19,595 bases of DNA from the UHGV virus genome UHGV-0349066; one strand, given 5' to 3'. A program made the position numbers and the translations under genes. Positions 1,444 to 17,391 of the stretch are shown here, one piece after another. This stretch comes from a virus. The notes beneath the pieces are model-generated. The model was not told where the DNA came from. It saw nothing but the letters and a program-made list of their open reading frames with translations, and made no database searches. Position 1 is the stretch's first letter. Every line of letters starts with the position of its first letter.

Positions 1444-1710
1444 TTAAATCGCACGTTTAGCAGTAATGGTACTGACGATTTCGCACACCATATTGAACAT
1501 TTCCTCATCGGTACGTACTGCGACAGTATAGCCAATATCGATAGAGTCTTTACGGAAACCCATAAAGAACAACGCACCGAAGTGTTTGCGGAACGCTTTA
1601 TACAGCGCATCTTTTTCATCTTCGGTTAATACGTAGTCTAGTTCAACAGTAAACTTGTAATCTTCTTTAGAAACGAATTCTTTAGCATAATCAGCTTTAG
1701 TGAAGTTCAT
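1444..1710 (-). CDS. hypothetical protein (88 aa)
   Basis: ATG at 1710 preceded by AGGAGA Shine-Dalgarno; located downstream of promoter-like motif and hairpin at 1739-1780. Confidence 0.6.
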   Translation of the reverse strand: MNFTKADYAKEFVSKEDYKFTVELDYVLTEDEKDALYKAFRKHFGALFFMGFRKDSIDIGYTVAVRTDEEMFNMVCEIVSTITAKRAI

Positions 1711-1738
1711 GGTATATTCTCCTAAAATGGTTCGTTAA

Positions 1739-1786
1739 GTGAGAGCTTTTGTACTCTCACCTAAGTAATATATATCTGAAATTATT
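1739..1786 (-). promoter_or_regulatory. phage promoter-like motif TCAGATATATATTACTTAGG followed by 5'-proximal hairpin (copy 2)
   Basis: Motif at plus 1761-1780; hairpin GTGAGAG / CTCTCAC at 1739-1760; AT-rich upstream flank; precedes the gene starting at 1710. Confidence 0.4.
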
Positions 1787-2072: not shown

Positions 2073-2349
2073 TAATAACCTCCCATAGTTCACGTTTCAC
2101 TTCAAGTTTATATTTTTCTACTTCAGGACGACAGTGAATCGTTGCCTTCTTGACCAACTCTAACCCACCGTCTTTCGATATCTTACCTTCACTAATCAGT
2201 TCGGTAATAGCACAAAGTTTAAAATAAAGTTCGCCCATTTCAGTGAGCATCTTATCTTGTTGTTTTATTAGCTCATCTTGCGTAGAGATAATTTTATCGT
2301 TGGTTTCGCAGACAGGACATTCCTTACGTTTAAATAAATTAAAAACCAC
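2062..2349 (-). CDS. hypothetical protein with N-terminal CPVC motif (95 aa; start refined)
   Basis: GTG at 2349 with AAAGGAGG 5 nt upstream; the ORF-track ATG at 2388 lacks a Shine-Dalgarno and would overlap the upstream gene by 50 nt. Confidence 0.55.
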   Translation of the reverse strand: MVFNLFKRKECPVCETNDKIISTQDELIKQQDKMLTEMGELYFKLCAITELISEGKISKDGGLELVKKATIHCRPEVEKYKLEVKRELWEVINEA

Positions 2350-2647
2350 TATCGCCTCCTTTGGCAATCCAGGTCGCCACACGCACATGAGCGTCTTGAA
2401 AAGACGAAATCAGCAAGATCACACCGCCTAACGTACGTGGTACGCGTAAGGCTTCGAAACGACGGCAGTAAGAGCGTACGCAATACTCGGAACCTAAGAT
2501 AACGATTTCGCAGTATTCTGAACGAATAGGCAGTAGTTGAGAAACGAGTTTATCGCACGTTTCTTTATTGTCTTCTAACAACCCACCGCGGAGAATATAG
2601 TTGACGATGTTCTCAGGTACCGATGTGTTTGTGATTTTGTTTTCCAT
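2339..2647 (-). CDS. hypothetical Cys-rich protein (102 aa)
   Basis: ATG at 2647 with GGAGAT Shine-Dalgarno; five Cys in the central region. Confidence 0.6.
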   Translation of the reverse strand: MENKITNTSVPENIVNYILRGGLLEDNKETCDKLVSQLLPIRSEYCEIVILGSEYCVRSYCRRFEALRVPRTLGGVILLISSFQDAHVRVATWIAKGGDSGF

Positions 2648-2650
2648 CTT

Positions 2651-3016
2651 TTAAATCTCCACCGTGGTTCTTTCAGTTTCTTTAATAAACTTACTGAGCG
2701 AATCATTTAAACGTTTTACTCTTTCACCAAACTTAACCATCGTGTCGTAAAGATTCTGTGCTGTAGCATTAAATAGAATCGGACCGTTTTTCAATTCCAA
2801 GGCAGAAACTAGATAGTATTCAGCATTGAAGATTGCTCCTCCCTCGCGCCCTATTCTAACAACTACATTACGAACTTGTACGTTTTGCAATCCTCCATTT
2901 GCTAACGTAATAATTTCTGTATACCAGTCACCTGATTTAACTACTGTTTGGACATTCTTACCGCAAGCCCAGGTTTTAAACGAATCGTTTAACCAATATT
3001 TAATTTTGTTCAGCAT
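2651..3016 (-). CDS. hypothetical protein (121 aa)
   Basis: ORF with ATG at 3016; packed 3 nt from the upstream stop. Confidence 0.6.
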   Translation of the reverse strand: MLNKIKYWLNDSFKTWACGKNVQTVVKSGDWYTEIITLANGGLQNVQVRNVVVRIGREGGAIFNAEYYLVSALELKNGPILFNATAQNLYDTMVKFGERVKRLNDSLSKFIKETERTTVEI

Positions 3017-3019
3017 ATT

Positions 3020-3328
3020 TCATTTACTTCTTACATTATCTCTTAAATTAAAAAATTCTTGTAACGAGCCCAGAATTAAATGATCTCTCATGTAAGGAAG
3101 TCTTTTACCGTACAATCTACGCTTAGGTTTTCCTTTTAAGATTCCCCCGGTAGAGTAAACGTCTATCACAACATCTCGAACCATGACTGTGTATTCCTTT
3201 CCAAAACGAATCACTGTTTCTTCATGGGGTTCGGATTCCGATACAACCTCTTCTACAATACGGCCGTAAAACAAAGAAAAGGCAATTTTGTATAGTTTGG
3301 CTTTAAGAATAATCAAAATACCGTGCAT
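3020..3328 (-). CDS. hypothetical protein (102 aa)
   Basis: ATG at 3328 with GGGAGGAG Shine-Dalgarno; the Shine-Dalgarno partly lies in the stem of the hairpin at 3342-3365. Confidence 0.6.
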   Translation of the reverse strand: MHGILIILKAKLYKIAFSLFYGRIVEEVVSESEPHEETVIRFGKEYTVMVRDVVIDVYSTGGILKGKPKRRLYGKRLPYMRDHLILGSLQEFFNLRDNVRSK

Positions 3329-3341
3329 CTTTCTTTCTCCT

Positions 3342-3365
3342 CCCTCTCAGGGGTTCCTGAGAGGG
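3342..3365 (-). promoter_or_regulatory. GC-rich intergenic hairpin overlapping the Shine-Dalgarno of the downstream gene
   Basis: Perfect 10-bp stem CCCTCTCAGG / CCTGAGAGGG with 4-nt loop; on the mRNA the 3' arm ends in GGG, which forms the start of the GGGAGGAG Shine-Dalgarno of the gene starting at 3328; no U-tract follows. Confidence 0.4.
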
Positions 3366-3371
3366 GTTATA

Positions 3372-3653
3372 TCACAGTTTCTCTTCTATTGTATCTAATC
3401 GAACTAACGCATCGTGACTGACTTTACGTGCATGTCCAATCGTACTGCCTAAAGCTTTTGTTGTTGGGTCTAAGGTATTCAGACGGTGATACTGATAATC
3501 GATATCCCGTATACAACGCGCCTGTTGTTTTACCATCCGAATTAATTGTCGTTTGGTTTGGCGATTGTTACTAAGTTCCTGCCGTAACCGTGCGTTTTCT
3601 TTATAAAGCTCCTGTTGACGTGAGTTAATTAATCCCAACAACCAATCTAACAT
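3372..3653 (-). CDS. hypothetical protein, coiled-coil-like N-terminus (93 aa)
   Basis: ATG at 3653 with GGGGGT Shine-Dalgarno; heptad-like charged N-terminal half (QQELYKENARLRQELSNNRQTKRQLIRMVKQQ). Confidence 0.6.
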   Translation of the reverse strand: MLDWLLGLINSRQQELYKENARLRQELSNNRQTKRQLIRMVKQQARCIRDIDYQYHRLNTLDPTTKALGSTIGHARKVSHDALVRLDTIEEKL

Positions 3654-3655
3654 TT

Positions 3656-4171
3656 TTACCCCCGGTGCAAGAAAATACGGTTAGTGTTTTCGAATTTCGG
3701 TTCTGTCCACTCCAGTTCCCAGTAAGCCTGGTTAATATCACGAGACGTGAGTTTCAAATTCAAAACACCGGGGATATCGATCTGTTGCAGTAAATTAATA
3801 ATCGACACCAGCTCTTTACGAGGGCGGTTCCAGATAACTTCAAGATACTCTTTCAGACGTTCTGGGTAAGCGACAGGTCGAATATAGACTAACCCAGCGG
3901 GATACTCAATTGCTGAGGGAGTTTTAGGGACTAACCAAACCCAGTCTTTTAATAGCGGTCCTGGGTGATAGTTGGAGAGTTGGGTAAGCGCGTTTGCGAC
4001 CGAACAGCAACGGAAGTAGGTGATATCCCAATCGCGTTCATGACAATTTCGCGCAACGATAACTTTTAAACGGTCAATAGGTTTACCGTCGATAGTCGTA
4101 ACACCAGGTTGATTCGCCAGAATCTGACGTTCACGTTTAGTATAAAGATTCATGTTAATATTTACTGACAT
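3656..4171 (-). CDS. hypothetical protein (171 aa)
   Basis: ATG at 4171 with AAGGAG Shine-Dalgarno 6 nt upstream. Confidence 0.65.
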   Translation of the reverse strand: MSVNINMNLYTKRERQILANQPGVTTIDGKPIDRLKVIVARNCHERDWDITYFRCCSVANALTQLSNYHPGPLLKDWVWLVPKTPSAIEYPAGLVYIRPVAYPERLKEYLEVIWNRPRKELVSIINLLQQIDIPGVLNLKLTSRDINQAYWELEWTEPKFENTNRIFLHRG

Positions 4172-4213: not shown

Positions 4214-5059
4214 TTATTTAAGATTTCGAATTTCTCTCATCTCGTTACAAAACTTATCAAACAACTGTGCGTATTTGTCAATGCGATTTTCGAACTCCCC
4301 AAAAAGGTGGCGTGAAAGGCGTTCGCTGATTTCCTTTTCGTATTTCTCGAAAACGTGTTTAAAAGATTCATTACATCTCTTAATTTCCCGCACATGAGTT
4401 TTCAAAGCTTTAAGAAACCGTGGTTTGTTTCTGATCAGGAGATGTAAATTATCTTTAAGATACTTGCTTTGACAAATTATAAACCCACCGAGTTCTTTTT
4501 CAACATTCACGGCTCGGATAATAAGCTCATCAGCATCGGCTTCTGTGATATTTTCAACGGTAAATAGCAGAATATTCTCGTCCTCTATATCTTTCAATAG
4601 TTGATCTATAAGAGCACGATAACCAGTATATTTATAGCTCGCTTTAAGCACGTTGTCTTCAATCACATACGTGAATTTATCGCTGAAAAAATGGTGTAGT
4701 ATTGGTTCAATTTTATCTGCTTGTTTAGGGGTAAGTGGAAACTCGCTTGTGTAACGAGCGGTGTCTTTCATAGTTGGCTTGTCCATTAGCCCACAAGTCG
4801 ACTGTTCTGGTAATTCTGGATCTTTAGACACCTCAACAGACCGTACTAAAATATCCGTAATCGCACTAATGAGTTTGTTAGGGAAATCGACATCACCTTC
4901 TACCCAGAAAATATTAAATGTTTCCGATTTAACTTTATAGTAAAAAGTGTACTTATTTTGTAATTCAATGATTTCCTTAATTTGTTCTTCAGTAGGGATA
5001 GGGGAGATCTTAAACCTGCCGATGACTTTTTCTTCTTCGGTGAGTTCGAACTGTAACAT
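4214..5059 (-). CDS. hypothetical protein (281 aa)
   Basis: ATG at 5059 with AAGGAA Shine-Dalgarno; long uninterrupted ORF. Confidence 0.7.
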   Translation of the reverse strand: MLQFELTEEEKVIGRFKISPIPTEEQIKEIIELQNKYTFYYKVKSETFNIFWVEGDVDFPNKLISAITDILVRSVEVSKDPELPEQSTCGLMDKPTMKDTARYTSEFPLTPKQADKIEPILHHFFSDKFTYVIEDNVLKASYKYTGYRALIDQLLKDIEDENILLFTVENITEADADELIIRAVNVEKELGGFIICQSKYLKDNLHLLIRNKPRFLKALKTHVREIKRCNESFKHVFEKYEKEISERLSRHLFGEFENRIDKYAQLFDKFCNEMREIRNLK

Positions 5060-5070
5060 GTTATAGTTCC

Positions 5071-5514
5071 TTAAATCATACCTGGGAATTCGAAATCGAT
5101 TTTATCTAAAAGTTTGTAGTCATCTTTTAGCTGAAGCATCAGTGTATTCTTAAACAGCTCAAGTGAACCGATAAAGTAAGCCGTATAGCAGCTACCACGA
5201 ACAGAAAAGGAAACAGCCAACGCTCTTAAACACTGTTTCAAGATTTCATGTTCTTCAGCGGTACCGAACAACTGGAAATTGATGACGGTAATCTGTTTAT
5301 TAATGATCGCCGATAACCATTCTTTAATTCTTCTTGTGGTTATACGTTCTTTGAAATCACTAGCTTCTGGCAACCAGGTAATGTGTACAAATGGGGCAGC
5401 ATAGTCGACGAGAACTTTTTGCTGCCAACGTACTTGCATCAAACCACGAATACGGTTTGCTAACGTTTCAGAATCACAAAGTAACATAATGCCGTTAGTA
5501 GTATTTGGCTTCAT
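5071..5514 (-). CDS. hypothetical protein (147 aa)
   Basis: ATG at 5514 overlapping the TGA of the upstream gene (ATGA). Confidence 0.65.
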   Translation of the reverse strand: MKPNTTNGIMLLCDSETLANRIRGLMQVRWQQKVLVDYAAPFVHITWLPEASDFKERITTRRIKEWLSAIINKQITVINFQLFGTAEEHEILKQCLRALAVSFSVRGSCYTAYFIGSLELFKNTLMLQLKDDYKLLDKIDFEFPGMI

Positions 5515-6362
5515 AATTGCCCTTCCTTCTTAATGTAATCTTCAACCAACTTATCAAACACGATTTTTATTTTCTCGCGTTCTTCTTCACCCAATTCACC
5601 AGAACAGGTTAGCCCATTTATCTTCCCGTACCGTAATTCCAACACATACTTCAACCGATGACGTAAGGCTTGTTCAAAATGCGTCGGGATATAGATCGGT
5701 TCGAAGTTGTGTAATAAAGTAAAATTGTCTTCGGTGTGTTTAGGGGGTTCGAATTTTACTTTATCTAAGATAGTAAGCCAACGGTGTCTGTCGACTAACC
5801 GATCGTCCCAATATACCGGTTTTGTCTTAGAGGGAGTAAGTGTATTGTAGTTACTGGAATCAGAGACACGGAAATTTGCCGTGACATAAGTCTTCGAGAG
5901 TAACGAGAGAAGACAAATCGTGCCTTCTTCAGGGTAGCTTAAAAGCTCCCCGAGTATGTCTTTAGCTTTCTTGAAGTAGTCTCTAATATAGTCTTCAGCA
6001 ATTGGCTGAATTTCTACTTCTATAGCGCTAATTTGAGGTCCGTCTATCCGTAAAGGAAATTTTAGCTCAGCTTTATATTGCCTATCCGACGTATAAGCGC
6101 GTGTAACAATAGGGTACGTAACAGGCTTAGCTAAATGACGATATTCATCATCTCTAATGACTGAGTAACGTCCAAACCCACCTTTATTCGATTTTGAAAA
6201 AGCGTAAAGGTCTTTTAGATACTCCAGATACTGGCCATCGGTCATTTCATCGGTATTAAATTCACGAATATAAAGTCGTTCAACAAATCCCTTTGTTTGT
6301 TCGTAGTAATAACTGGGGTCCCTATTTGCTAGAATGTGCGGGAGATAATACGGGTGTGGCAT
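5511..6362 (-). CDS. hypothetical protein (283 aa); first gene after terminator and promoter-like motif
   Basis: ATG at 6362 with AAAGGAGG 5 nt upstream; preceded by hairpin and TCAGATATATATTACCTAGG motif. Confidence 0.7.
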   Translation of the reverse strand: MPHPYYLPHILANRDPSYYYEQTKGFVERLYIREFNTDEMTDGQYLEYLKDLYAFSKSNKGGFGRYSVIRDDEYRHLAKPVTYPIVTRAYTSDRQYKAELKFPLRIDGPQISAIEVEIQPIAEDYIRDYFKKAKDILGELLSYPEEGTICLLSLLSKTYVTANFRVSDSSNYNTLTPSKTKPVYWDDRLVDRHRWLTILDKVKFEPPKHTEDNFTLLHNFEPIYIPTHFEQALRHRLKYVLELRYGKINGLTCSGELGEEEREKIKIVFDKLVEDYIKKEGQL

Positions 6363-6389
6363 CTAATCCTCCTTTAGGCTATAACTAAT

Positions 6390-6440
6390 AGAGCGAATGT
6401 AAATTTCGCTCTCCCCTAGGTAATATATATCTGAGAAAAA
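6390..6440 (-). promoter_or_regulatory. phage promoter-like motif TCAGATATATATTACCTAGG followed by 5'-proximal hairpin (copy 1)
   Basis: Minus-strand motif (plus 6417-6434) directly downstream of the terminator T-run; 8-bp hairpin AGAGCGAA / TTCGCTCT at 6390-6412; near-identical motif plus a different hairpin at 1739-1780. Confidence 0.4.
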
Positions 6441-6481
6441 ATAAAAAAAAGAAAGGTAGTAGGGGCTTAGCCCCTACTACC
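6435..6481 (-). terminator. rho-independent terminator ending the fibre/adhesin gene block
   Basis: 12-bp stem GGTAGTAGGGGC / GCCCCTACTACC (6455-6466 / 6470-6481), loop TTA, followed on the minus strand by TTTCTTTTTTTTATTTTTT. Confidence 0.8.
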
Positions 6482-6487
6482 TAAAAA

Positions 6488-7110: not shown

Positions 7111-7623
7111 TTAACCTCCAAAGGTTAAGACACGGTTATCTGCGGTAACGATTAAATCGTTGTCTTTTACTACAGCGGCTTCTTCATCGTTACCGAAAAC
7201 CAGAACGGAGAATTGGCCTTTATAACCTAACGAGTTGGGTGAAACCTGTAACGTTACAGCGTCTTTCCCCACGGTAAATGAATCGTCCTGAAGATCTTCG
7301 GGTTGCAGGTTACTGCCACAGGCTGCGTTAATCGCGTCGATTAAATCGTGTGTGCTAAACCCCTCACCAGTTACTTGCACCAGAATAGGTTGCTGGTTTA
7401 ACCAACGTTCTGCGGTTAAACGGTTGTAATAGATTTGTAACGTTCTGTTACCGGGACGTTTTATCTTTACAACAGCAGTGGTGTCACGATCCATTTCGTT
7501 ACTGGTCTTTACGTCGCTGACTTCAACCTCGTTCTCTTGCAAGTCGAGCTGGAGGTCATGGTTAACCAGTGAAATAACCATGTTAAGTGAAGTTAACGAC
7601 AAATCTGGCGTGAATTGTTCCAC
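7111..7623 (-). CDS. hypothetical fibre-associated protein, paralog of the 13829..14389 product (170 aa)
   Basis: GTG start at 7623 with AGGAGG upstream; shares motifs PDLSL, VNHD and CGSNLQPEDL with the other paralog (FCGTNLQPEDL). Confidence 0.7.
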   Translation of the reverse strand: MEQFTPDLSLTSLNMVISLVNHDLQLDLQENEVEVSDVKTSNEMDRDTTAVVKIKRPGNRTLQIYYNRLTAERWLNQQPILVQVTGEGFSTHDLIDAINAACGSNLQPEDLQDDSFTVGKDAVTLQVSPNSLGYKGQFSVLVFGNDEEAAVVKDNDLIVTADNRVLTFGG

Positions 7624-7678
7624 GTATGGTTACCTCCTATGATTGGGGAGACGTAAAATGTTGGCTAAAAACATTTCA

Positions 7679-7688
7679 CCCCCCCCCC
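7679..7688. repeat. homopolymer C10 (G10 on the coding strand) in an intergenic region
   Basis: Ten consecutive C at 7679-7688 between the gp38-like paralog stop (7723) and the start of the 7111..7623 gene, flanked by two AT-rich hairpins. Confidence 0.9.
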
Positions 7689-7722
7689 GATTACGTTTTC
7701 AAGCACATTCGCTTGAAAATTA

Positions 7723-8166
7723 TTAACTGATTTTGAAATCTCTTAACGTACCAGTTGATTTCATCACGTTTTGGAACGCGGCACTAATGTTGTTGGTCCA
7801 GTAATAATGTTGACCATTAATAACCTGTTGATAAGTCAACGTACAAGTATTACCACCCAGGTTTACAGTAATGTTAGAAGCTCTCCCACCTTGTAAGTAA
7901 ACCGCTAAAGTAGGCTTTGCGTTGGTAAATATCGTCGTTAACTGTAACTCGATACCTACTAAAGTTCCCACCCCGCAGTTACCCGCGTTTTGAATGGTCC
8001 CCTGATTTTTCTGGTTTAACGGCCAGTTTGGTCCTACTGCACCCCATTTATTACCTAAGGAATCGCTATATGCGGCAGTTGCAATTTTACAGCCCATTGA
8101 TCGTCCCACCATTTGACTCATCATAAAAGGTCTACCCAATCCTAATTTACTACCCGCAGCGCTCAT
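7723..8166 (-). CDS. gp38-like adhesin paralog with divergent C-terminal domain; N-terminus apparently disrupted (likely extends to ATG at 8225 across a frameshift)
   Basis: Minimal ORF from ATG 8166. The in-frame sequence upstream back to the stop of the preceding gene encodes VDGVASGWVGSSARNETGEQW, homologous to the N-terminus of the 8242..9024 product; AAGGAGG plus ATG at 8225..8223 is in another frame, separated by a G4 run. Confidence 0.55.
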   Translation of the reverse strand: MSAAGSKLGLGRPFMMSQMVGRSMGCKIATAAYSDSLGNKWGAVGPNWPLNQKNQGTIQNAGNCGVGTLVGIELQLTTIFTNAKPTLAVYLQGGRASNITVNLGGNTCTLTYQQVINGQHYYWTNNISAAFQNVMKSTGTLRDFKIS

Positions 8167-8241
8167 CCATTGTTCGCCCGTTTCATTCCTAGCTGAAGAT
8201 CCGACCCATCCTGACGCTACCCCATCTACCCTCCTTTTTAA

Positions 8242-9024
8242 TTAAACACGTGAACCGTATATTGCACCTACTGCGTCCCATCTTGGCGCATTACCAGTAA
8301 CAGCTTTACCAGCTGCTCCGCCGTTATATTCTGTACCGTTACCATGAGTATTACATCTTCCTCCAGCAGCACCGACATTACCACCCGAACCGCCTGTATA
8401 TGCACTAAGAGACCCCTCACCAACAGATCCTTTACCAGGAGCGGAAATAGTACCAGCAGTTGCACCGGAACTCATATGAGAGGAAGACCCGCCAGCACCG
8501 AATGGGCGACCACCGCCACCACCAAATATTAGTCTACCCCTGTTACCGCCACCACCGCCGCCACCGCCTCCGGCAATAGCGCCACGGTTGGTTATACGCA
8601 GTCTGTTTCCTATTCCGTTCTGTATTGCGGTTCCACCTGCACCGCCTGGTGAGTTAGAACCGCCGTTGCCTCCTCTGCCGTATACTGTAACCCCAGGATT
8701 GATAACGAGTGTAATGGAGGAGTTCGGTAGGTCGCCAGGGAACTCTAAACAAGGAACTCCGCTACTATAAGACACTAAATCCCCCGTAATAGTCACAACG
8801 ACAGCAGTAGAGCCTAAAGAACGTAAATAGTTAATAAGAGTATCCTTATTATAGCTATGGTTAGCACCAATAGAATAATGGACCTCTTTTGATTTTCCCG
8901 CCAATTGCGACATCCAGCCTGGAACCGGCACACCAAGTGTGCGCATCGCGCCAGACATCCATTCGTTACCAGCTTCAGCTTTTGCTGAAGAACCAATCCA
9001 ACCACCTACGCCGACAACTGCCAC
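8242..9024 (-). CDS. T2-type gp38-like tail-fibre tip adhesin, glycine-rich (260 aa)
   Basis: GTG start overlapping the fibre TAG stop (TAGTG) with GGGAGA Shine-Dalgarno. N-terminus MAVVGVGGWIGSSA...WMSQLAG and motifs ITGDLVSYS, YGRGGNGG, AIAGGGGGGGGG, GGGGGRPFGAGG match my recollection of T2/K3-type gp38 adhesins with glycine-rich motifs. Confidence 0.75.
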   Translation of the reverse strand: MAVVGVGGWIGSSAKAEAGNEWMSGAMRTLGVPVPGWMSQLAGKSKEVHYSIGANHSYNKDTLINYLRSLGSTAVVVTITGDLVSYSSGVPCLEFPGDLPNSSITLVINPGVTVYGRGGNGGSNSPGGAGGTAIQNGIGNRLRITNRGAIAGGGGGGGGGNRGRLIFGGGGGRPFGAGGSSSHMSSGATAGTISAPGKGSVGEGSLSAYTGGSGGNVGAAGGRCNTHGNGTEYNGGAAGKAVTGNAPRWDAVGAIYGSRV

Positions 9025-13828: not shown

Positions 13829-14389
13829 TCATGTAGCCGGGTTTTCTTCAGCTGTGTCGTCATCTGGAACCTCAAAGGTAAGAACAGCATCATCACCAAT
13901 ACAGAAGATCGCGTCATCTTCGTTTGCTAATGCTCGTTCGGTTGTATCGAATAACGTTACCATAAACGCATTCATCCACGCAGGAGAATCGTCAGCAACG
14001 TTAACAGCAATGGGTTCGTTACCTAAGGTGATATCTGCAGCACGTAAATCTTCGGGTTGTAAGTTCGTTCCGCAGAATTCATTTACAACACCTAAAATGT
14101 CACGAAGGTTGTCTTCGGTACCATCTAACGAAATCAAAATAGGTTCAGACGCTAACACTTCGTCCGCATCCAAACGGTCGTAATAAACAACCACAGAAGC
14201 ACCATCAGGTTTCCTGATTTTTGTAATCTCTGTCAGTGTGTTACGACGCGAAGTGGTCGGGGACGGGTTTGCCATAGTGTTGCTAATACGGATTTCGTTT
14301 AGAGACAACCGTGAACCGTTATCGTGGTTGATTAAAGCGACCACTAATTCGGCTGAGGCCAGACTTAAATCAGGTACGTAAGTAGTCAC
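13829..14389 (-). CDS. hypothetical fibre-associated protein, paralog of the 7111..7623 product (186 aa; start refined)
   Basis: GTG at 14389 with GGGAGG 5 nt upstream; start position matches the paralog start (MTTYVPDLSL vs MEQFTPDLSL). The ORF-track N-terminal extension to 14458 is the translated terminator hairpin and T-run. Confidence 0.7.
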   Translation of the reverse strand: MTTYVPDLSLASAELVVALINHDNGSRLSLNEIRISNTMANPSPTTSRRNTLTEITKIRKPDGASVVVYYDRLDADEVLASEPILISLDGTEDNLRDILGVVNEFCGTNLQPEDLRAADITLGNEPIAVNVADDSPAWMNAFMVTLFDTTERALANEDDAIFCIGDDAVLTFEVPDDDTAEENPAT

Positions 14390-14404
14390 TAAAACCTCCC
14401 AGAT

Positions 14405-14450
14405 CAAAAAAAAAATAAAAACACCTACCGCCCATAGAATCGGGCGGTAG
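14405..14450 (-). terminator. rho-independent terminator, 6 nt upstream of the ribosome-binding site of the 13829..14389 gene
   Basis: 9-bp GC-rich stem CTACCGCCC / GGGCGGTAG (14425-14433 / 14442-14450), 8-nt loop, then GTGTTTTTATTTTTTTTTT on the minus strand. Confidence 0.75.
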
Positions 14451-14484
14451 GCAGTCATTTTACAGCTAAAAATCGAAGTAGTTA

Positions 14485-14919
14485 CTACGCTTTAACGGAC
14501 TTTGCTAGATTGATATCAAAGAATCGGATTTCTAAAATTTTATCGTTGCGATACATTATGCGTGGTTTTAGATCTACGTAACCATGCTCAATAATAAAGT
14601 TTCGAACATCGTCACCGTACACACCACCCGGACAAAACTCACCATAAACTTCAACGTTATTATCGTCCGCTGTCACCATGATGTCAGTAAGATGGCCACC
14701 AGAAAATTCAATTCTGACAGTTTTTGGAAAGTCAGTATTGAATTCTGTAGGATCTTTAATAGCCTCACAAACGCTCATGTGATGTCTTAGTAGGCGCGCA
14801 AACGCTGCGGAGGGATTTTCAGGATCGTAGAAATCCGAACGAGGTAATGTCAATAATAACCCTTTAACTTTAATATCCTGTCTTTCAGGTATCACCGTTA
14901 TTTCTGCTTTTACTTTCAT
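14485..14919 (-). CDS. hypothetical protein (144 aa; start refined)
   Basis: ATG at 14919 overlapping the TGA of the upstream gene (ATGA), GGAGAA Shine-Dalgarno; ORF-track start at 14937 lies inside the upstream gene. Confidence 0.6.
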   Translation of the reverse strand: MKVKAEITVIPERQDIKVKGLLLTLPRSDFYDPENPSAAFARLLRHHMSVCEAIKDPTEFNTDFPKTVRIEFSGGHLTDIMVTADDNNVEVYGEFCPGGVYGDDVRNFIIEHGYVDLKPRIMYRNDKILEIRFFDINLAKSVKA

Positions 14920-15290
14920 TCGATTAATTCTCCACACAACTCAACGTCGATACCAAACATCAATCCCACTTCTTGAAGCTTGCTCGCCAGTAGATGACGA
15001 TGGCAAAACTTGCCTGCGGGACAATAACACATCAAAACCAAATCTTCGTGTCTAAGTAATGACACTAAAGTTTCGGCGTCGGTATCTAACAGTCGTTCGA
15101 GTTTGTACAAATACTTTATCGTGTACTCGCGTTCAGCAGCTGCATCCTTTGCAGAGTTTTTATACGCCATTAAGAAATCCCAGTCGGGGGCGAGTTCCTT
15201 TCGCCCTGACTTCACAGTGATATCCACTGCGTGAAACCCTTTCTGCTTAGCTAACCGCCACTTAGCGAGCTGTAACGTCCAGATACGCAT
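14916..15290 (-). CDS. hypothetical protein with C-terminal Cys/His motif CYCPAGKFCHRH (124 aa)
   Basis: ATG at 15290 overlapping the upstream TAA (TAATG); motif C-x-C-x5-C-H-x-H suggests metal binding, possibly DUF488-like (unverified). Confidence 0.6.
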   Translation of the reverse strand: MRIWTLQLAKWRLAKQKGFHAVDITVKSGRKELAPDWDFLMAYKNSAKDAAAEREYTIKYLYKLERLLDTDAETLVSLLRHEDLVLMCYCPAGKFCHRHLLASKLQEVGLMFGIDVELCGELIE

Positions 15291-15490
15291 TAGGAACGAG
15301 TCTGCGATTCAGCCATCAGCGCACAACTTTTCACAGCCTGTGCATGAAGCTCTGTACCGGGTGTGTAATCCTTTATACAATCCTGATACAATTCACGTTT
15401 TGTTTCTAGAACACGATTATCGTACTCAGCACTTGCTAGTGCACCTGCGATAAGGATAAAAACTAGAATCGGCAACCAAATTTTCATCAT
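15290..15490 (-). CDS. small secreted or membrane-anchored protein with predicted signal peptide and Cys pair (66 aa)
   Basis: ATG overlapping upstream TGA; N-terminus MMKIWLPILVFILIAGALASA is signal-peptide-like (ASA then EY); paralogous to the adjacent upstream small protein. Confidence 0.55.
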   Translation of the reverse strand: MMKIWLPILVFILIAGALASAEYDNRVLETKRELYQDCIKDYTPGTELHAQAVKSCALMAESQTRS

Positions 15491-15696
15491 CCATCTCCCA
15501 TTCGTTTAGCGTATTCCGTACACGCCATTACTAATTCGGCGTAACGTGGATCGTCTACGGTCTTTCCAGACATACACTCACGATAAAGGCTTTCTTTGCG
15601 CGAGTCATCTGACACACGGACATAAAACATCAGCATCGTCACAACCAGCACGGTTGAAACAATCGCTGAGATGATGTATCCATTAGCTCTTTTCAT
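15487..15696 (-). CDS. small membrane-anchored protein with Cys pair (69 aa from ATG 15696; alternative start ATG 15711 gives 74 aa)
   Basis: Hydrophobic segment YIISAIVSTVLVVTMLMFYV; ATG at 15696 overlaps the upstream TGA (ATGA). C-terminal region (YRECMSG...DPRYAELVMACTEYAKRM) is paralogous to the 15290..15490 product (YQDCIKD...AQAVKSCALMAE). Confidence 0.5.
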   Translation of the reverse strand: MKRANGYIISAIVSTVLVVTMLMFYVRVSDDSRKESLYRECMSGKTVDDPRYAELVMACTEYAKRMGDG

Positions 15697-16214
15697 CGTA
15701 TAAAACACCATGGTTCTGGATAAAACCCTGTAAGTAAATCAACGTAAAAACTATGTAAATTTGTTAGTGTTATAACGCACCCTAACAAATCATGCTCAGT
15801 ATGGTGATAAATCACTACAGATGTTTCTGATACCCGTTTAACATGTATATGACCCACGTCTTTAATGCTCTGATACAATCGTCCGAAATCGACCGTACCG
15901 ACAGCATCAGATGAATCCGTAACCGAGTACCGTATTCGTGGAGTCTCATTATTTACTAACGAAAGAAATTTCTCCACACTTTCAGCATGGATTTGTTCCA
16001 TAAAGGATAAGTGTGGGAACACTTCTTTACGTAACGCGCTGCTTGAAATCTTAGCAAAAACCTGACGTTCCGTTAAGCGCATTAACTCGCCTAATCTTTT
16101 CAAGTCTTTGTTATAGTTCAGAAAAGCAACCACCTTTTCATCGTGCGTAATAGGCGGCCATTCGACCGCCTTTGCCCGACGTTGCTTAAACCAACTCGCA
16201 AGTCGCGCTATCAC
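15693..16214 (-). CDS. hypothetical protein (173 aa)
   Basis: GTG at 16214, 2 nt after the upstream TAA, with AGGAAGAGGA upstream. Confidence 0.55.
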   Translation of the reverse strand: MIARLASWFKQRRAKAVEWPPITHDEKVVAFLNYNKDLKRLGELMRLTERQVFAKISSSALRKEVFPHLSFMEQIHAESVEKFLSLVNNETPRIRYSVTDSSDAVGTVDFGRLYQSIKDVGHIHVKRVSETSVVIYHHTEHDLLGCVITLTNLHSFYVDLLTGFYPEPWCFIR

Positions 16215-16216
16215 GC

Positions 16217-16909
16217 TTAGTAATCCTCTTCCTGATTCACTACCGATTGGATACGGGATGCGACTTCGTTAGTGTCCAGGTCAGTTTCGTCTACCTTATC
16301 CACAAGTTTCTGTACTTTACGTACATGTGATTCGGTAATATCAAAACGACCACGATCAGCTAACAGCAACGTTACCATGTCCTTACGTGTAACCATCAGT
16401 TCTTCTTCAGGTAAGTGTAAGGATTTGTCTAACAGACCCGAATGCATGAAGTTTTCCAGTAAGCGTTCTTCCCCCTGGTCGAAATCATAACGTTCGTTAG
16501 GTGCAGCAACGAAAGCATAACCGAAGTAGTTTTCTTCCGTCTCGCGTAACGACTTGATGATCTTGTCACCGTGTTGACAGAAATCACTTAACGTGTAGTC
16601 GTCAAGCGTTGCCACGATGGTTTCTGCTTGCACACCGTTATCTGTTTCGTACAGATGAGCAACCCAGAGTTTCCAGTTACGTGGCTCGTCAAACAAACCA
16701 CCGATTAACATATCGGTAGCCGCCATGCGCATACGCGGTGACGTTGTAAACTGGAAACCACGGCCCGCGTACGGACCGATAGGACGAATAGAGCTACCGA
16801 CGAAAGTAATGCGGTTTAGCGCATTTTCAGCAATGGTGTGCGCAGTACGGTTAGCAGCGGCTTTCGGGTTATACTTTTTGTTACGTGGTTTCTTTTGTTT
16901 GGTAGCCAT
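16217..16909 (-). CDS. hypothetical protein with basic N-terminus (230 aa)
   Basis: ATG at 16909 overlapping the upstream TAA (TAATG); Lys/Arg-rich N-terminus MATKQKKPRNKKYNPK. Confidence 0.65.
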   Translation of the reverse strand: MATKQKKPRNKKYNPKAAANRTAHTIAENALNRITFVGSSIRPIGPYAGRGFQFTTSPRMRMAATDMLIGGLFDEPRNWKLWVAHLYETDNGVQAETIVATLDDYTLSDFCQHGDKIIKSLRETEENYFGYAFVAAPNERYDFDQGEERLLENFMHSGLLDKSLHLPEEELMVTRKDMVTLLLADRGRFDITESHVRKVQKLVDKVDETDLDTNEVASRIQSVVNQEEDY

Positions 16910-17391
16910 TATTTATTCTCAACTAATACTGTGTGAAATGCTTTGTAGAGAGCTTGACGTGTCTCAATTAACGCGGGACGATTAATCAAGCACATGTATC
17001 CGATTTGCCATGCCCAATAAGACGTGTCATCGGTATTTAACCCGTAATCAGGCTCAGGATATAATAATTCTGAATCCACTTCTGGCAAATGAAGACGACA
17101 CAAACTAAGATTCCAAAAATTGGCTAAGTCACTTTTTGCAAGTTCAGACATCACCTGCATCGGTATCCTATTTCCAAGAGCATCCGTTGCGAAGATAATA
17201 CGGAGGTGCCCTGGAGACTTAGAATAGATGCCATGTCCTTCACAAGACCAGATCGAAACAACATGCGGATAATCGTTAATCAGTTTACAAATATCACGAA
17301 CACCTTTCTCAATGTCACCGTTTTTGGCTGCAAGCTGAGCACGCTCTTTAAATGACGCTAGTCTTTCTGCATCAACAGAAAATTGATTCAT
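16909..17391 (-). CDS. hypothetical protein (160 aa)
   Basis: ATG at 17391 overlapping the upstream TGA (ATGA). Confidence 0.65.
   Translation of the reverse strand: MNQFSVDAERLASFKERAQLAAKNGDIEKGVRDICKLINDYPHVVSIWSCEGHGIYSKSPGHLRIIFATDALGNRIPMQVMSELAKSDLANFWNLSLCRLHLPEVDSELLYPEPDYGLNTDDTSYWAWQIGYMCLINRPALIETRQALYKAFHTVLVENK

Follow-up and report, generated by a model that had tools for sequence, protein, structure and literature searches.

What reads a motif that stands before two genes in one stretch of phage DNA, and what does the hairpin that follows each copy do for the transcripts that would begin there? We addressed this in UHGV virus genome UHGV-0349066, using the whole 19,595-nt stretch analysed (hereafter 'the window'), in which all gene-like open reading frames (ORFs) lie on the minus strand.

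Two exact copies of one motif

A scan of the window located the 20-mer TCAGATATATATTACYTAGG in two exact copies, both on the minus strand, at 6434..6415 and 1779..1760. The preliminary description of this DNA was right in reporting two minus-strand copies; the positions that it gave, 6417–6434 and 1761–1780, were off by 1–2 nt. No further copy with up to 3 mismatches occurred in the rest of the window. A chance origin of the motif was ruled out because none of 200 dinucleotide-preserving shuffles of the window contained a match to TCAGATATATATTACYTAGG.

Promoter copy 1 (6415..6434, minus strand) has the conserved 20-mer TCAGATATATATTACCTAGG with the phiKZ-type core TATATTAC inside it, and its extended conserved region covers approximately 6450..6409. 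Promoter copy 2 (1760..1779, minus strand) reads TCAGATATATATTACTTAGG. Both copies contain ATATATTAC, an AT-rich core of about 10 nt of the TATATTAC or ATATTAY type.

As had been described, copy 1 directly follows a terminator. At 6436..6482 (minus strand) lies the terminator-like hairpin of the upstream tail-fibre operon with its T-run; the stem-loop itself (6482–6454) has 13 bp, 8 of them G-C pairs, a loop of 3 and the tail TTCTTTTTTT, and the T-run continues into the AT-rich upstream part of promoter copy 1.

A sigma-70 promoter scan listed no sigma-70-like site at copy 1 and only a weak match, 9/12 (TTAATA-16-TATATT), at copy 2, in agreement with the earlier remark that the motif has no TTGACA −35 element.

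A giant phage of the SPN3US group

By megablast, the sole match of the window was to a gp38-type adhesin segment common to T4-like phages. The product of ORF 16217–16909 is 62–64% identical to SPN3US gp151 and to the proteins of relatives with genomes of 233–246 kb, and the window is collinear with 101.7–112.6 kb of Salmonella phage SPN3US. SPN3US matches were obtained for nine window ORFs, of which seven (17391..13829 and 4171..2339) are in collinear order; the two tail-fibre ORFs between these collinear blocks gave short matches only, at approximately 105.8–106.5 kb of SPN3US.

SPN3US is a phiKZ-related giant phage (PMC5312081). Several genes in its record are annotated as RNA polymerase beta subunits, which agrees with descriptions of this group as having two multisubunit RNA polymerases, one of them packaged in the virion. 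The polymerase genes lie outside the window, and a phage polymerase is attributed to the window phage through its relatedness to SPN3US. Judged by gene content and gene order, the window phage is a phiKZ-like, nucleus-forming giant phage of the SPN3US group (Salmonella/E. coli).

The window also carries two gp38-type tail-fibre adhesin genes (ORF 8242–9024 and ORF 7723–8166). At 8240–8700, in ORF 8242–9024, the DNA is 82–92% identical to adhesin genes of T4-like coliphages (RB49, JSE and others), which suggests that a host-range module was recently exchanged between T4-like phages and a phiKZ-like giant phage. The 1533-aa tail-fibre gene and the adhesin genes lie between two ORFs, 7111–7623 and 13829–14458, that encode paralogous 'virion structural proteins' (PHROG 2935/1037) and both match SPN3US 105.8–106.3 kb; these paralogues suggest a duplication of the fibre module. 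In the intergenic region 7624–7722 (minus strand), a run of ten G lies in an imperfect inverted repeat (cgtaatcgggggggggg ... cgtctcccc), just 5′ of the ribosome site of ORF 7111–7623. At 3329–3371 (minus strand) there is a G+C-rich hairpin, CCCTCTCAGG-aacc-CCTGAGAGGG, whose 3′ arm runs into the Shine–Dalgarno sequence (GAGGGAGGAG) of ORF 3372–3653; possible roles are control of translation and, despite the missing T-run, termination.

Match to the phiKZ-like early promoters

The core TATATTAC present in the motif is the published early-promoter core of phiKZ (PMC7058600, Table 2), and longer consensuses are given in the same table for OBP, N1M2 and 201phi2-1 (TTTCARRYAKATATTATYWAAGTGWA; ..TTTRARR_BTATATTACDWHDGTG). 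Copy 2 with its flanks (1781–1756) agrees with the N1M2 consensus at 23 of 26 positions, with 3 mismatches (chance expectation 0.00), and differs from the 201phi2-1 consensus by 2 mismatches in 24 (chance expectation 0.03). Copy 1 has more than 3 mismatches to the extended consensus (TTC for TTT, GGG for GTG) and still has the 20-mer in common with copy 2.

Early motifs are centred at about −10 from the mapped early starts in phiKZ and 201phi2-1 and have been assigned to the virion polymerase (PMC7598289, PMC8244752, PMC11512511). Early transcription by phiKZ is insensitive to rifampicin and independent of both the host polymerase and new protein synthesis (PMC7598289, PMC13282480). On the strength of the TATATTAC core, the fit to the N1M2 and 201phi2-1 consensuses and the recurrence of the 20-mer upstream of genes (below), the promoter is almost certainly a member of the known phiKZ-like early promoter family. 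By homology, the polymerase that reads it would be the injected multisubunit virion RNA polymerase. From the published position of the core, transcription would start at a G 5–7 nt 3′ of TATATTAC, which corresponds to 6413..6415 for copy 1 and 1758..1760 for copy 2 (both minus strand).

A T4 late promoter and a T7-type single-subunit promoter were rejected because the phage is phiKZ-like. The preliminary description had called the motif a phage-specific promoter, neither sigma-70 nor T4 late; the published core bears this out, the promoter being a phiKZ-type early one and so of a known kind rather than a new one.

Recurrence among related phages

The exact 20-mer was found in 37 stretches from about 12 giant-phage IMG/VR contigs (nine of them of 220–246 kb), SPN3US included. 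Nearly every one of the 42 occurrences listed was followed by a ribosome site and an ATG in the same orientation; Shine–Dalgarno sequence and ATG lay within 127 nt (median 57 nt) in 37 of the 38 distinct promoter instances, and the core matches in SPN3US were on the coding strand in 19 of 20 cases. When the leaders were aligned, conservation reached from about −35 (GATTAAAAA) past the inferred start as far as +6 (GAGAGT). Enrichment of the motif upstream of genes elsewhere, on which the original proposal had hinged, was found: multiple co-oriented copies are present in about 12 related giant-phage genomes.

SPN3US has two variants of the promoter. Variant A, the form in the window (AGATATATATTAC), has approximately 8 copies, situated before small unknown genes and a gene for an HTH protein. 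Variant B, which is OBP-like (AGATAGATATTATCT), has approximately 13, one of which precedes a gene annotated as an RNA polymerase beta subunit. Leaders after variant B in SPN3US are shorter and have fewer hairpins (mean z −1.08). In SPN3US the place of window copy 1, directly behind the tail-fibre genes, is taken by an OBP-like site (109,890); the window itself contained no copy of AGATAGATATTATCT. Variant B, (T)CAGATAGATATTATCT, is an imperfect palindrome that resembles the OBP/N1M2 consensus (in SPN3US, for example, at 28966, 23807, 72681, 109890 and 191599).

Some copies have an unusual downstream arrangement. At L006 210–290 and L034 8711–8630 (minus strand), promoter and hairpin are present with no ribosome site or ATG within 80 nt; a tRNA scan 3′ of these copies without a nearby ORF found no tRNA, and what follows them may be a long leader or a non-coding RNA. 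At SPN3US 165,684–165,760 (also L041 15685– and L032 8430–), promoter and 5′ hairpin are followed directly by a strong terminator-like hairpin, GGCTACCTTCGGGTAGCC, and by TATTCTTTTTT, still ahead of the next gene, an arrangement that would yield a transcript of about 50 nt or act as an attenuator.

The leaders in the window and their genes

The preliminary description had reported a hairpin of differing sequence after each motif copy, and we found these at 6412–6390 and 1761–1738. The leader hairpin of copy 1 (6390..6412, minus strand; AGAGCGAA / 7-nt loop / TTCGCTCT) has 8 bp, with arms at 6412–6405 and 6397–6390, and a folding energy of −10.6 kcal/mol (z = −4.5). That of copy 2 (1738..1761, minus strand; GGUGAGAGU / 6-nt loop / GCUCUCACU) has the 7 perfect pairs GTGAGAG/CTCTCAC and 2 wobble pairs, 9 pairs in all, at −12.6 kcal/mol (z = −4.7). 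Directly after the stems come ATTAGTTA (copy 1) and TTAACGAA (copy 2).

The strong Shine–Dalgarno sequence and ATG reported after each hairpin are likewise in place: AGGAGG at 6373–6368 with a start codon at 6362–6360 for copy 1 (6360..6373, minus strand), and AGGAG at 1723–1719 with a start codon at 1710–1708 for copy 2 (1708..1723, minus strand). The spacer had been put at 20–25 nt; as measured, it is 15–16 nt from hairpin to Shine–Dalgarno sequence and 27–28 nt from hairpin to ATG. Between hairpin and Shine–Dalgarno sequence the spacer is unstructured, and the ribosome site is unpaired in the predicted folds of both leaders.

The first gene of copy 1 is a 283-aa ORF (5511..6362, minus strand) for which we found no homologue in Pfam, PHROG or phage databases and no match in SPN3US; that of copy 2 is an 88-aa ORF (1444..1710, minus strand) for which Pfam, PHROG and tblastn recognized no family. 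Two ORF-sized differences separate the window from close relatives: 5547–6377, where L028 is without the 283-aa ORF, and 4222–5066, where L018 is without a 281-aa ORF (4214–5059). As the contig behind L028 does not have the 283-aa ORF, its promoter and hairpin would drive the next gene. The early-gene region is, on these comparisons, plastic.

In SPN3US, a GACYAT box stands a fixed short distance 5′ of the Shine–Dalgarno sequence (consensus approximately AATCGACYATnnAAGGAG; sites at 23835, 56339, 65459, 94284, 114034, 167596 and 223322), and a weaker form occurs in the window at 1734–1727 (CGAACCAT). The combination of GACYAT, Shine–Dalgarno sequence and ATG lay at most 150 nt 3′ of an early-promoter core at 7 of 9 sites in SPN3US, and GACYAT alone showed no enrichment genome-wide in that phage. 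The box looks like a conserved part of the early leader.

Folding and co-variation of the leader hairpin

A hairpin of at least 5 bp was present in 34 of 36 distinct leaders, starting 0–5 nt from the GG of TAGG, with a mean stem of 8.1 bp and loops of 3–11 nt; by the same threshold, the other 2 of the 36 had none. Its 5′ arm consists of the conserved start sequence (G)GTGAGAG with a variable extension, and its 3′ arm lies downstream and is variable. Inner stem columns contain 4–5 pair types.

Many of the leaders are paralogues or orthologues of each other and are not independent, so that the following p-values overstate independence: mean z against dinucleotide shuffles was −2.2 (t-test p = 1e-11); native leaders folded at −8.19 kcal/mol compared with −5.89 kcal/mol for arm-swapped chimeras, in which a 5′ half was joined to the 3′ half of a different leader (p = 1e-5); and sense RNA folded at −8.19 compared with −5.79 kcal/mol for antisense (Wilcoxon p = 1e-5). 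There were 51 G-U pairs in sense and 13 in antisense, and this bias, together with the better folding of the sense strand, therefore points to the transcribed strand and not to a symmetric DNA site. Taken one by one, the hairpins are modest: compared with random 34-mers from SPN3US, their median of −7.9 kcal/mol is no lower than the 15th percentile.

Orthologues of copy 1 (window, L018 and L028) differ by one compensatory double change, C-G to U-A, in L018 and L028. Among orthologues of copy 2 (window, L015, L018 and L025), six columns differ, almost all of them in the loop; of 11 predicted stem pairs, 10 do not vary, and the one that closes the loop has a change on one side and remains paired (U-G/U-A). 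A covariance model was built on an ungapped MAFFT alignment, with all matches realigned, and was dominated by the conserved promoter sequence; 60% of cells were paired in its alignment compared with 57% in shuffles, a weak count because the 3′ arms were out of register. The case for co-variation is accordingly made by the arm-swap chimeras, the sense/antisense comparison, the hairpin search and the orthologue alignments.

No Rfam covariance model matched the window, searched in full at the gathering threshold, and we found no description of the leader hairpin in the searchable literature on early promoters or transcription of these phages. No consistent hairpin was seen at the eight early-type sites that lie within the first 50 kb of phiKZ, and the leader hairpin is for this reason seen as a clade-specific addition, not as a requirement of the promoter family.

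The preliminary description had argued for a functional RNA structure at the 5′ end, and the hairpins in 34 of 36 leaders, the arm co-variation, the sense bias and the compensatory change all speak for it. Across the leaders compared, the hairpin is real and general in the SPN3US clade, and an RNA-level structure is very probably under selection.

Hairpins of the copy 1 type have a common loop form, GAAATTTAC / AAAATTA (window 6404–6398, SPN3US 109,9xx and 92,5xx, L010 and L011), and the stems beneath this loop differ (GCGAA, GTGAA, GCGCG, GTGTG and ACGTA). A conserved loop on a variable stem could be a candidate binding site.

Proposed role of the hairpin

Our best explanation of the whole, to which we give a probability of roughly 0.6, is a virion-polymerase early promoter with a protective 5′ hairpin. 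Both sites would be early promoters read by the multisubunit RNA polymerase of the virion, which enters the cell together with the phage DNA. Transcription from the G 5–7 nt 3′ of TATATTAC would give an RNA that begins (G)GUGAGAG, and this would pair with a complementary stretch 10–20 nt further on. As the inferred start places (G)GUGAGAG first in the RNA, the stem-loop would form no more than about 2 nt from the RNA 5′ end, and after it would come a spacer free of structure, a strong ribosome-binding site and the first early gene. The stem-loop would hide the 5′ terminus from 5′-end-dependent decay (RppH, RNase E), and the first messages made after injection would then live longer. RppH and RNase E need a single-stranded 5′ end, the reason for which 5′ secondary structures stabilize mRNA (PMC3997798), and 5′-end protection of the earliest messages is for the same reason the simplest reading. 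Taken by itself, the stabilizing role of the hairpin is a tentative proposal that we rate a little short of an even chance.

The stems, beginning 0–5 nt from the GG of TAGG, coincide with a start that is itself placed by homology. Because the paired region often takes in the GG(T) just 5′ of GAGAG, the 5′ end could be flush with the stem or have 0–3 unpaired bases. The reading at RNA level depends on the start, as so placed, not lying 3′ of the hairpin, and would fail otherwise.

Alternative explanations

The hairpin might act instead during transcription, as a pause, an attenuator or a site of premature termination that gives short leader RNAs or tunes read-through. Premature termination in 5′ UTRs, with short RNAs, has been reported for phiKZ and 201phi2-1 (PMC11512511), TT(T)A directly follows the stem in many leaders, the copy 1 hairpin came up in a terminator scan as weakly terminator-like, and at SPN3US 165,684 the 5′ hairpin is followed by a true terminator-like hairpin and T-run. 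The leader stems, however, with their mean of 8.1 bp, contain only 2.6 G-C pairs, the 8-nt tail after the stem has a mean of 2.7 T and no T-run longer than 3, unlike an intrinsic terminator, and the stems of the window copies run on into ATTAGTTA and TTAACGAA; we consider such a role improbable. The inverted repeat might equally work as DNA, either in recognition by the virion polymerase as in N4, which sets a precedent for hairpin-dependent virion-polymerase promoters, or as the operator of a dimeric repressor of early transcription. In favour are the partial conservation of the outer half-sites GTGAGAG ... CTCTCAC and the fact that the virion polymerase had, as of a 2020 review, never been purified (PMC7598289). 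A palindrome or cruciform acting as duplex would nevertheless be symmetric, whereas the sense strand folds much better than the antisense strand and has G-U pairs four times as often. Because loop length (3–11 nt, which sets the arm spacing) and inner stem sequence both vary, a fixed protein operator is unlikely; moreover, the hairpin here lies 3′ of the −10-like core whereas that of N4 lies 5′ of the start, and phiKZ promoters of the same family work without one. Together these points make a DNA-level site very improbable.

A third possibility, compatible with the protective leader, is that promoter and leader form mainly a recombination cassette, like the PeSL (promoter-early stem-loop) cassettes, that shuffles orphan genes and carries the hairpin along; recombination, many times over, would then account for its uniformity. 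About 50 nt of near-identical sequence are repeated around each genome 5′ of orphan ORFs, what the contig behind L028 is missing is precisely the 283-aa ORF that comes next to copy 1, with homology resuming at window 6378 just past the hairpin, and PeSL is a precedent in T4-type phages (PMC2839356). Yet the arms of the hairpin differ between copies while pairing is kept, the opposite of simple homogenization, and the other ORF-sized difference (window 4222–5066, absent in L018) does not adjoin a promoter copy, which leaves the cassette as the main explanation with little probability. As for the promoter itself, host RNA polymerase might read these sites early in infection as ordinary sigma-70 promoters with TATATT as the −10 element: TATATT lies inside the core, TTGATT or GATTAAAAA stands about 17 nt upstream in many copies, and the sigma-70 scan gave copy 2 a score of 9/12. 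Invariance, though, extends over more than 20 consecutive positions and takes in bases that belong to no sigma-70 element; at copy 1, which the scan did not list, the −35 place is filled by T-run sequence alone; and in phiKZ this core drives early transcription that is insensitive to rifampicin and needs no new protein synthesis. Host sigma-70 promoters are on this evidence highly improbable. Finally, the (G)GUGAGAG hairpin and, in many copies, the GACYAT box together might be a specific tag of early messages and do more than block decay passively: a phage or host factor might recognize the tag for export from the early infection vesicle in which the virion polymerase works, or the tag might serve preferential ribosome loading or escape of the virion polymerase from the promoter; we regard this as unlikely.

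Significance

The promoter kind was already known; the clade-specific leader hairpin is a modest extension, open to testing, of what is understood about early gene expression in nucleus-forming giant phages. The hairpin is a clade-wide, co-varying feature that the accessible promoter literature does not mention. We found no transcript maps for SPN3US-like giant phages in the searchable literature, and the motif permits the immediate annotation of early transcription units in such phages of Salmonella, E. coli and relatives. If the hairpin does stabilize or mark the transcripts made first after injection, it would have a bearing on how these phages prevail in the first minutes of infection; a related question is by what route early mRNAs get out of the infection vesicle (PMC13282480). 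The arrangement offers a compact promoter-plus-leader module for expression from virion-polymerase promoters.

Comparison with known systems

With the early promoters of phiKZ, 201phi2-1, OBP and N1M2, the sites described here have in common an AT-rich core and the extended consensus TTTCARRYAKATATTAY..GTG, many copies per genome that are co-oriented with operons of small early genes of unknown function, and a phage group with both virion and non-virion multisubunit polymerases. The SPN3US clade differs from these relatives in that its 20-mer is invariant over about 12 genomes and in that it adds the conserved start sequence GAGAG and the leader hairpin.

The hairpin promoters of N4 are similar in combining an injected virion polymerase with a promoter-associated inverted repeat. 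The virion polymerase of N4 is a single-subunit enzyme, and its promoter hairpin forms in the DNA upstream of the start, with a fixed small loop, and is recognized as single-stranded DNA. Here, by contrast, the repeat lies downstream of the core, is variable in loop and sequence and is biased towards the sense RNA, and in these points the sites are unlike promoters of the N4 type.

PeSL cassettes consist of a promoter and a stem-loop ending in a Shine–Dalgarno sequence and are found before orphan early genes in variable regions (PMC2839356). A composite, repeated promoter and stem-loop motif before orphan genes is shared with the present sites, where one ORF gain or loss adjoins the cassette and another does not. 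PeSL has sigma-70-like promoters, and its G/C-rich stem-loops lie within or upstream of the promoter and terminate incoming transcription; in the window there is no −35 element at copy 1, and the stem-loop is AT-rich, follows the inferred start and is not terminator-like, so that neither the promoter nor the terminator of PeSL is matched.

The 5′-terminal stabilizing stem-loops of the ompA and papA mRNAs are short stem-loops on the very first transcribed bases, with an open ribosome site, and the leader hairpin would resemble them in this. The leader of T7 gene 10 also has a 5′ stem-loop of the stabilizing kind. The leaders described here differ from such stabilizing stem-loops in that their 5′ end is placed by homology and in that the structure is tied to one promoter class genome-wide, not to one gene.
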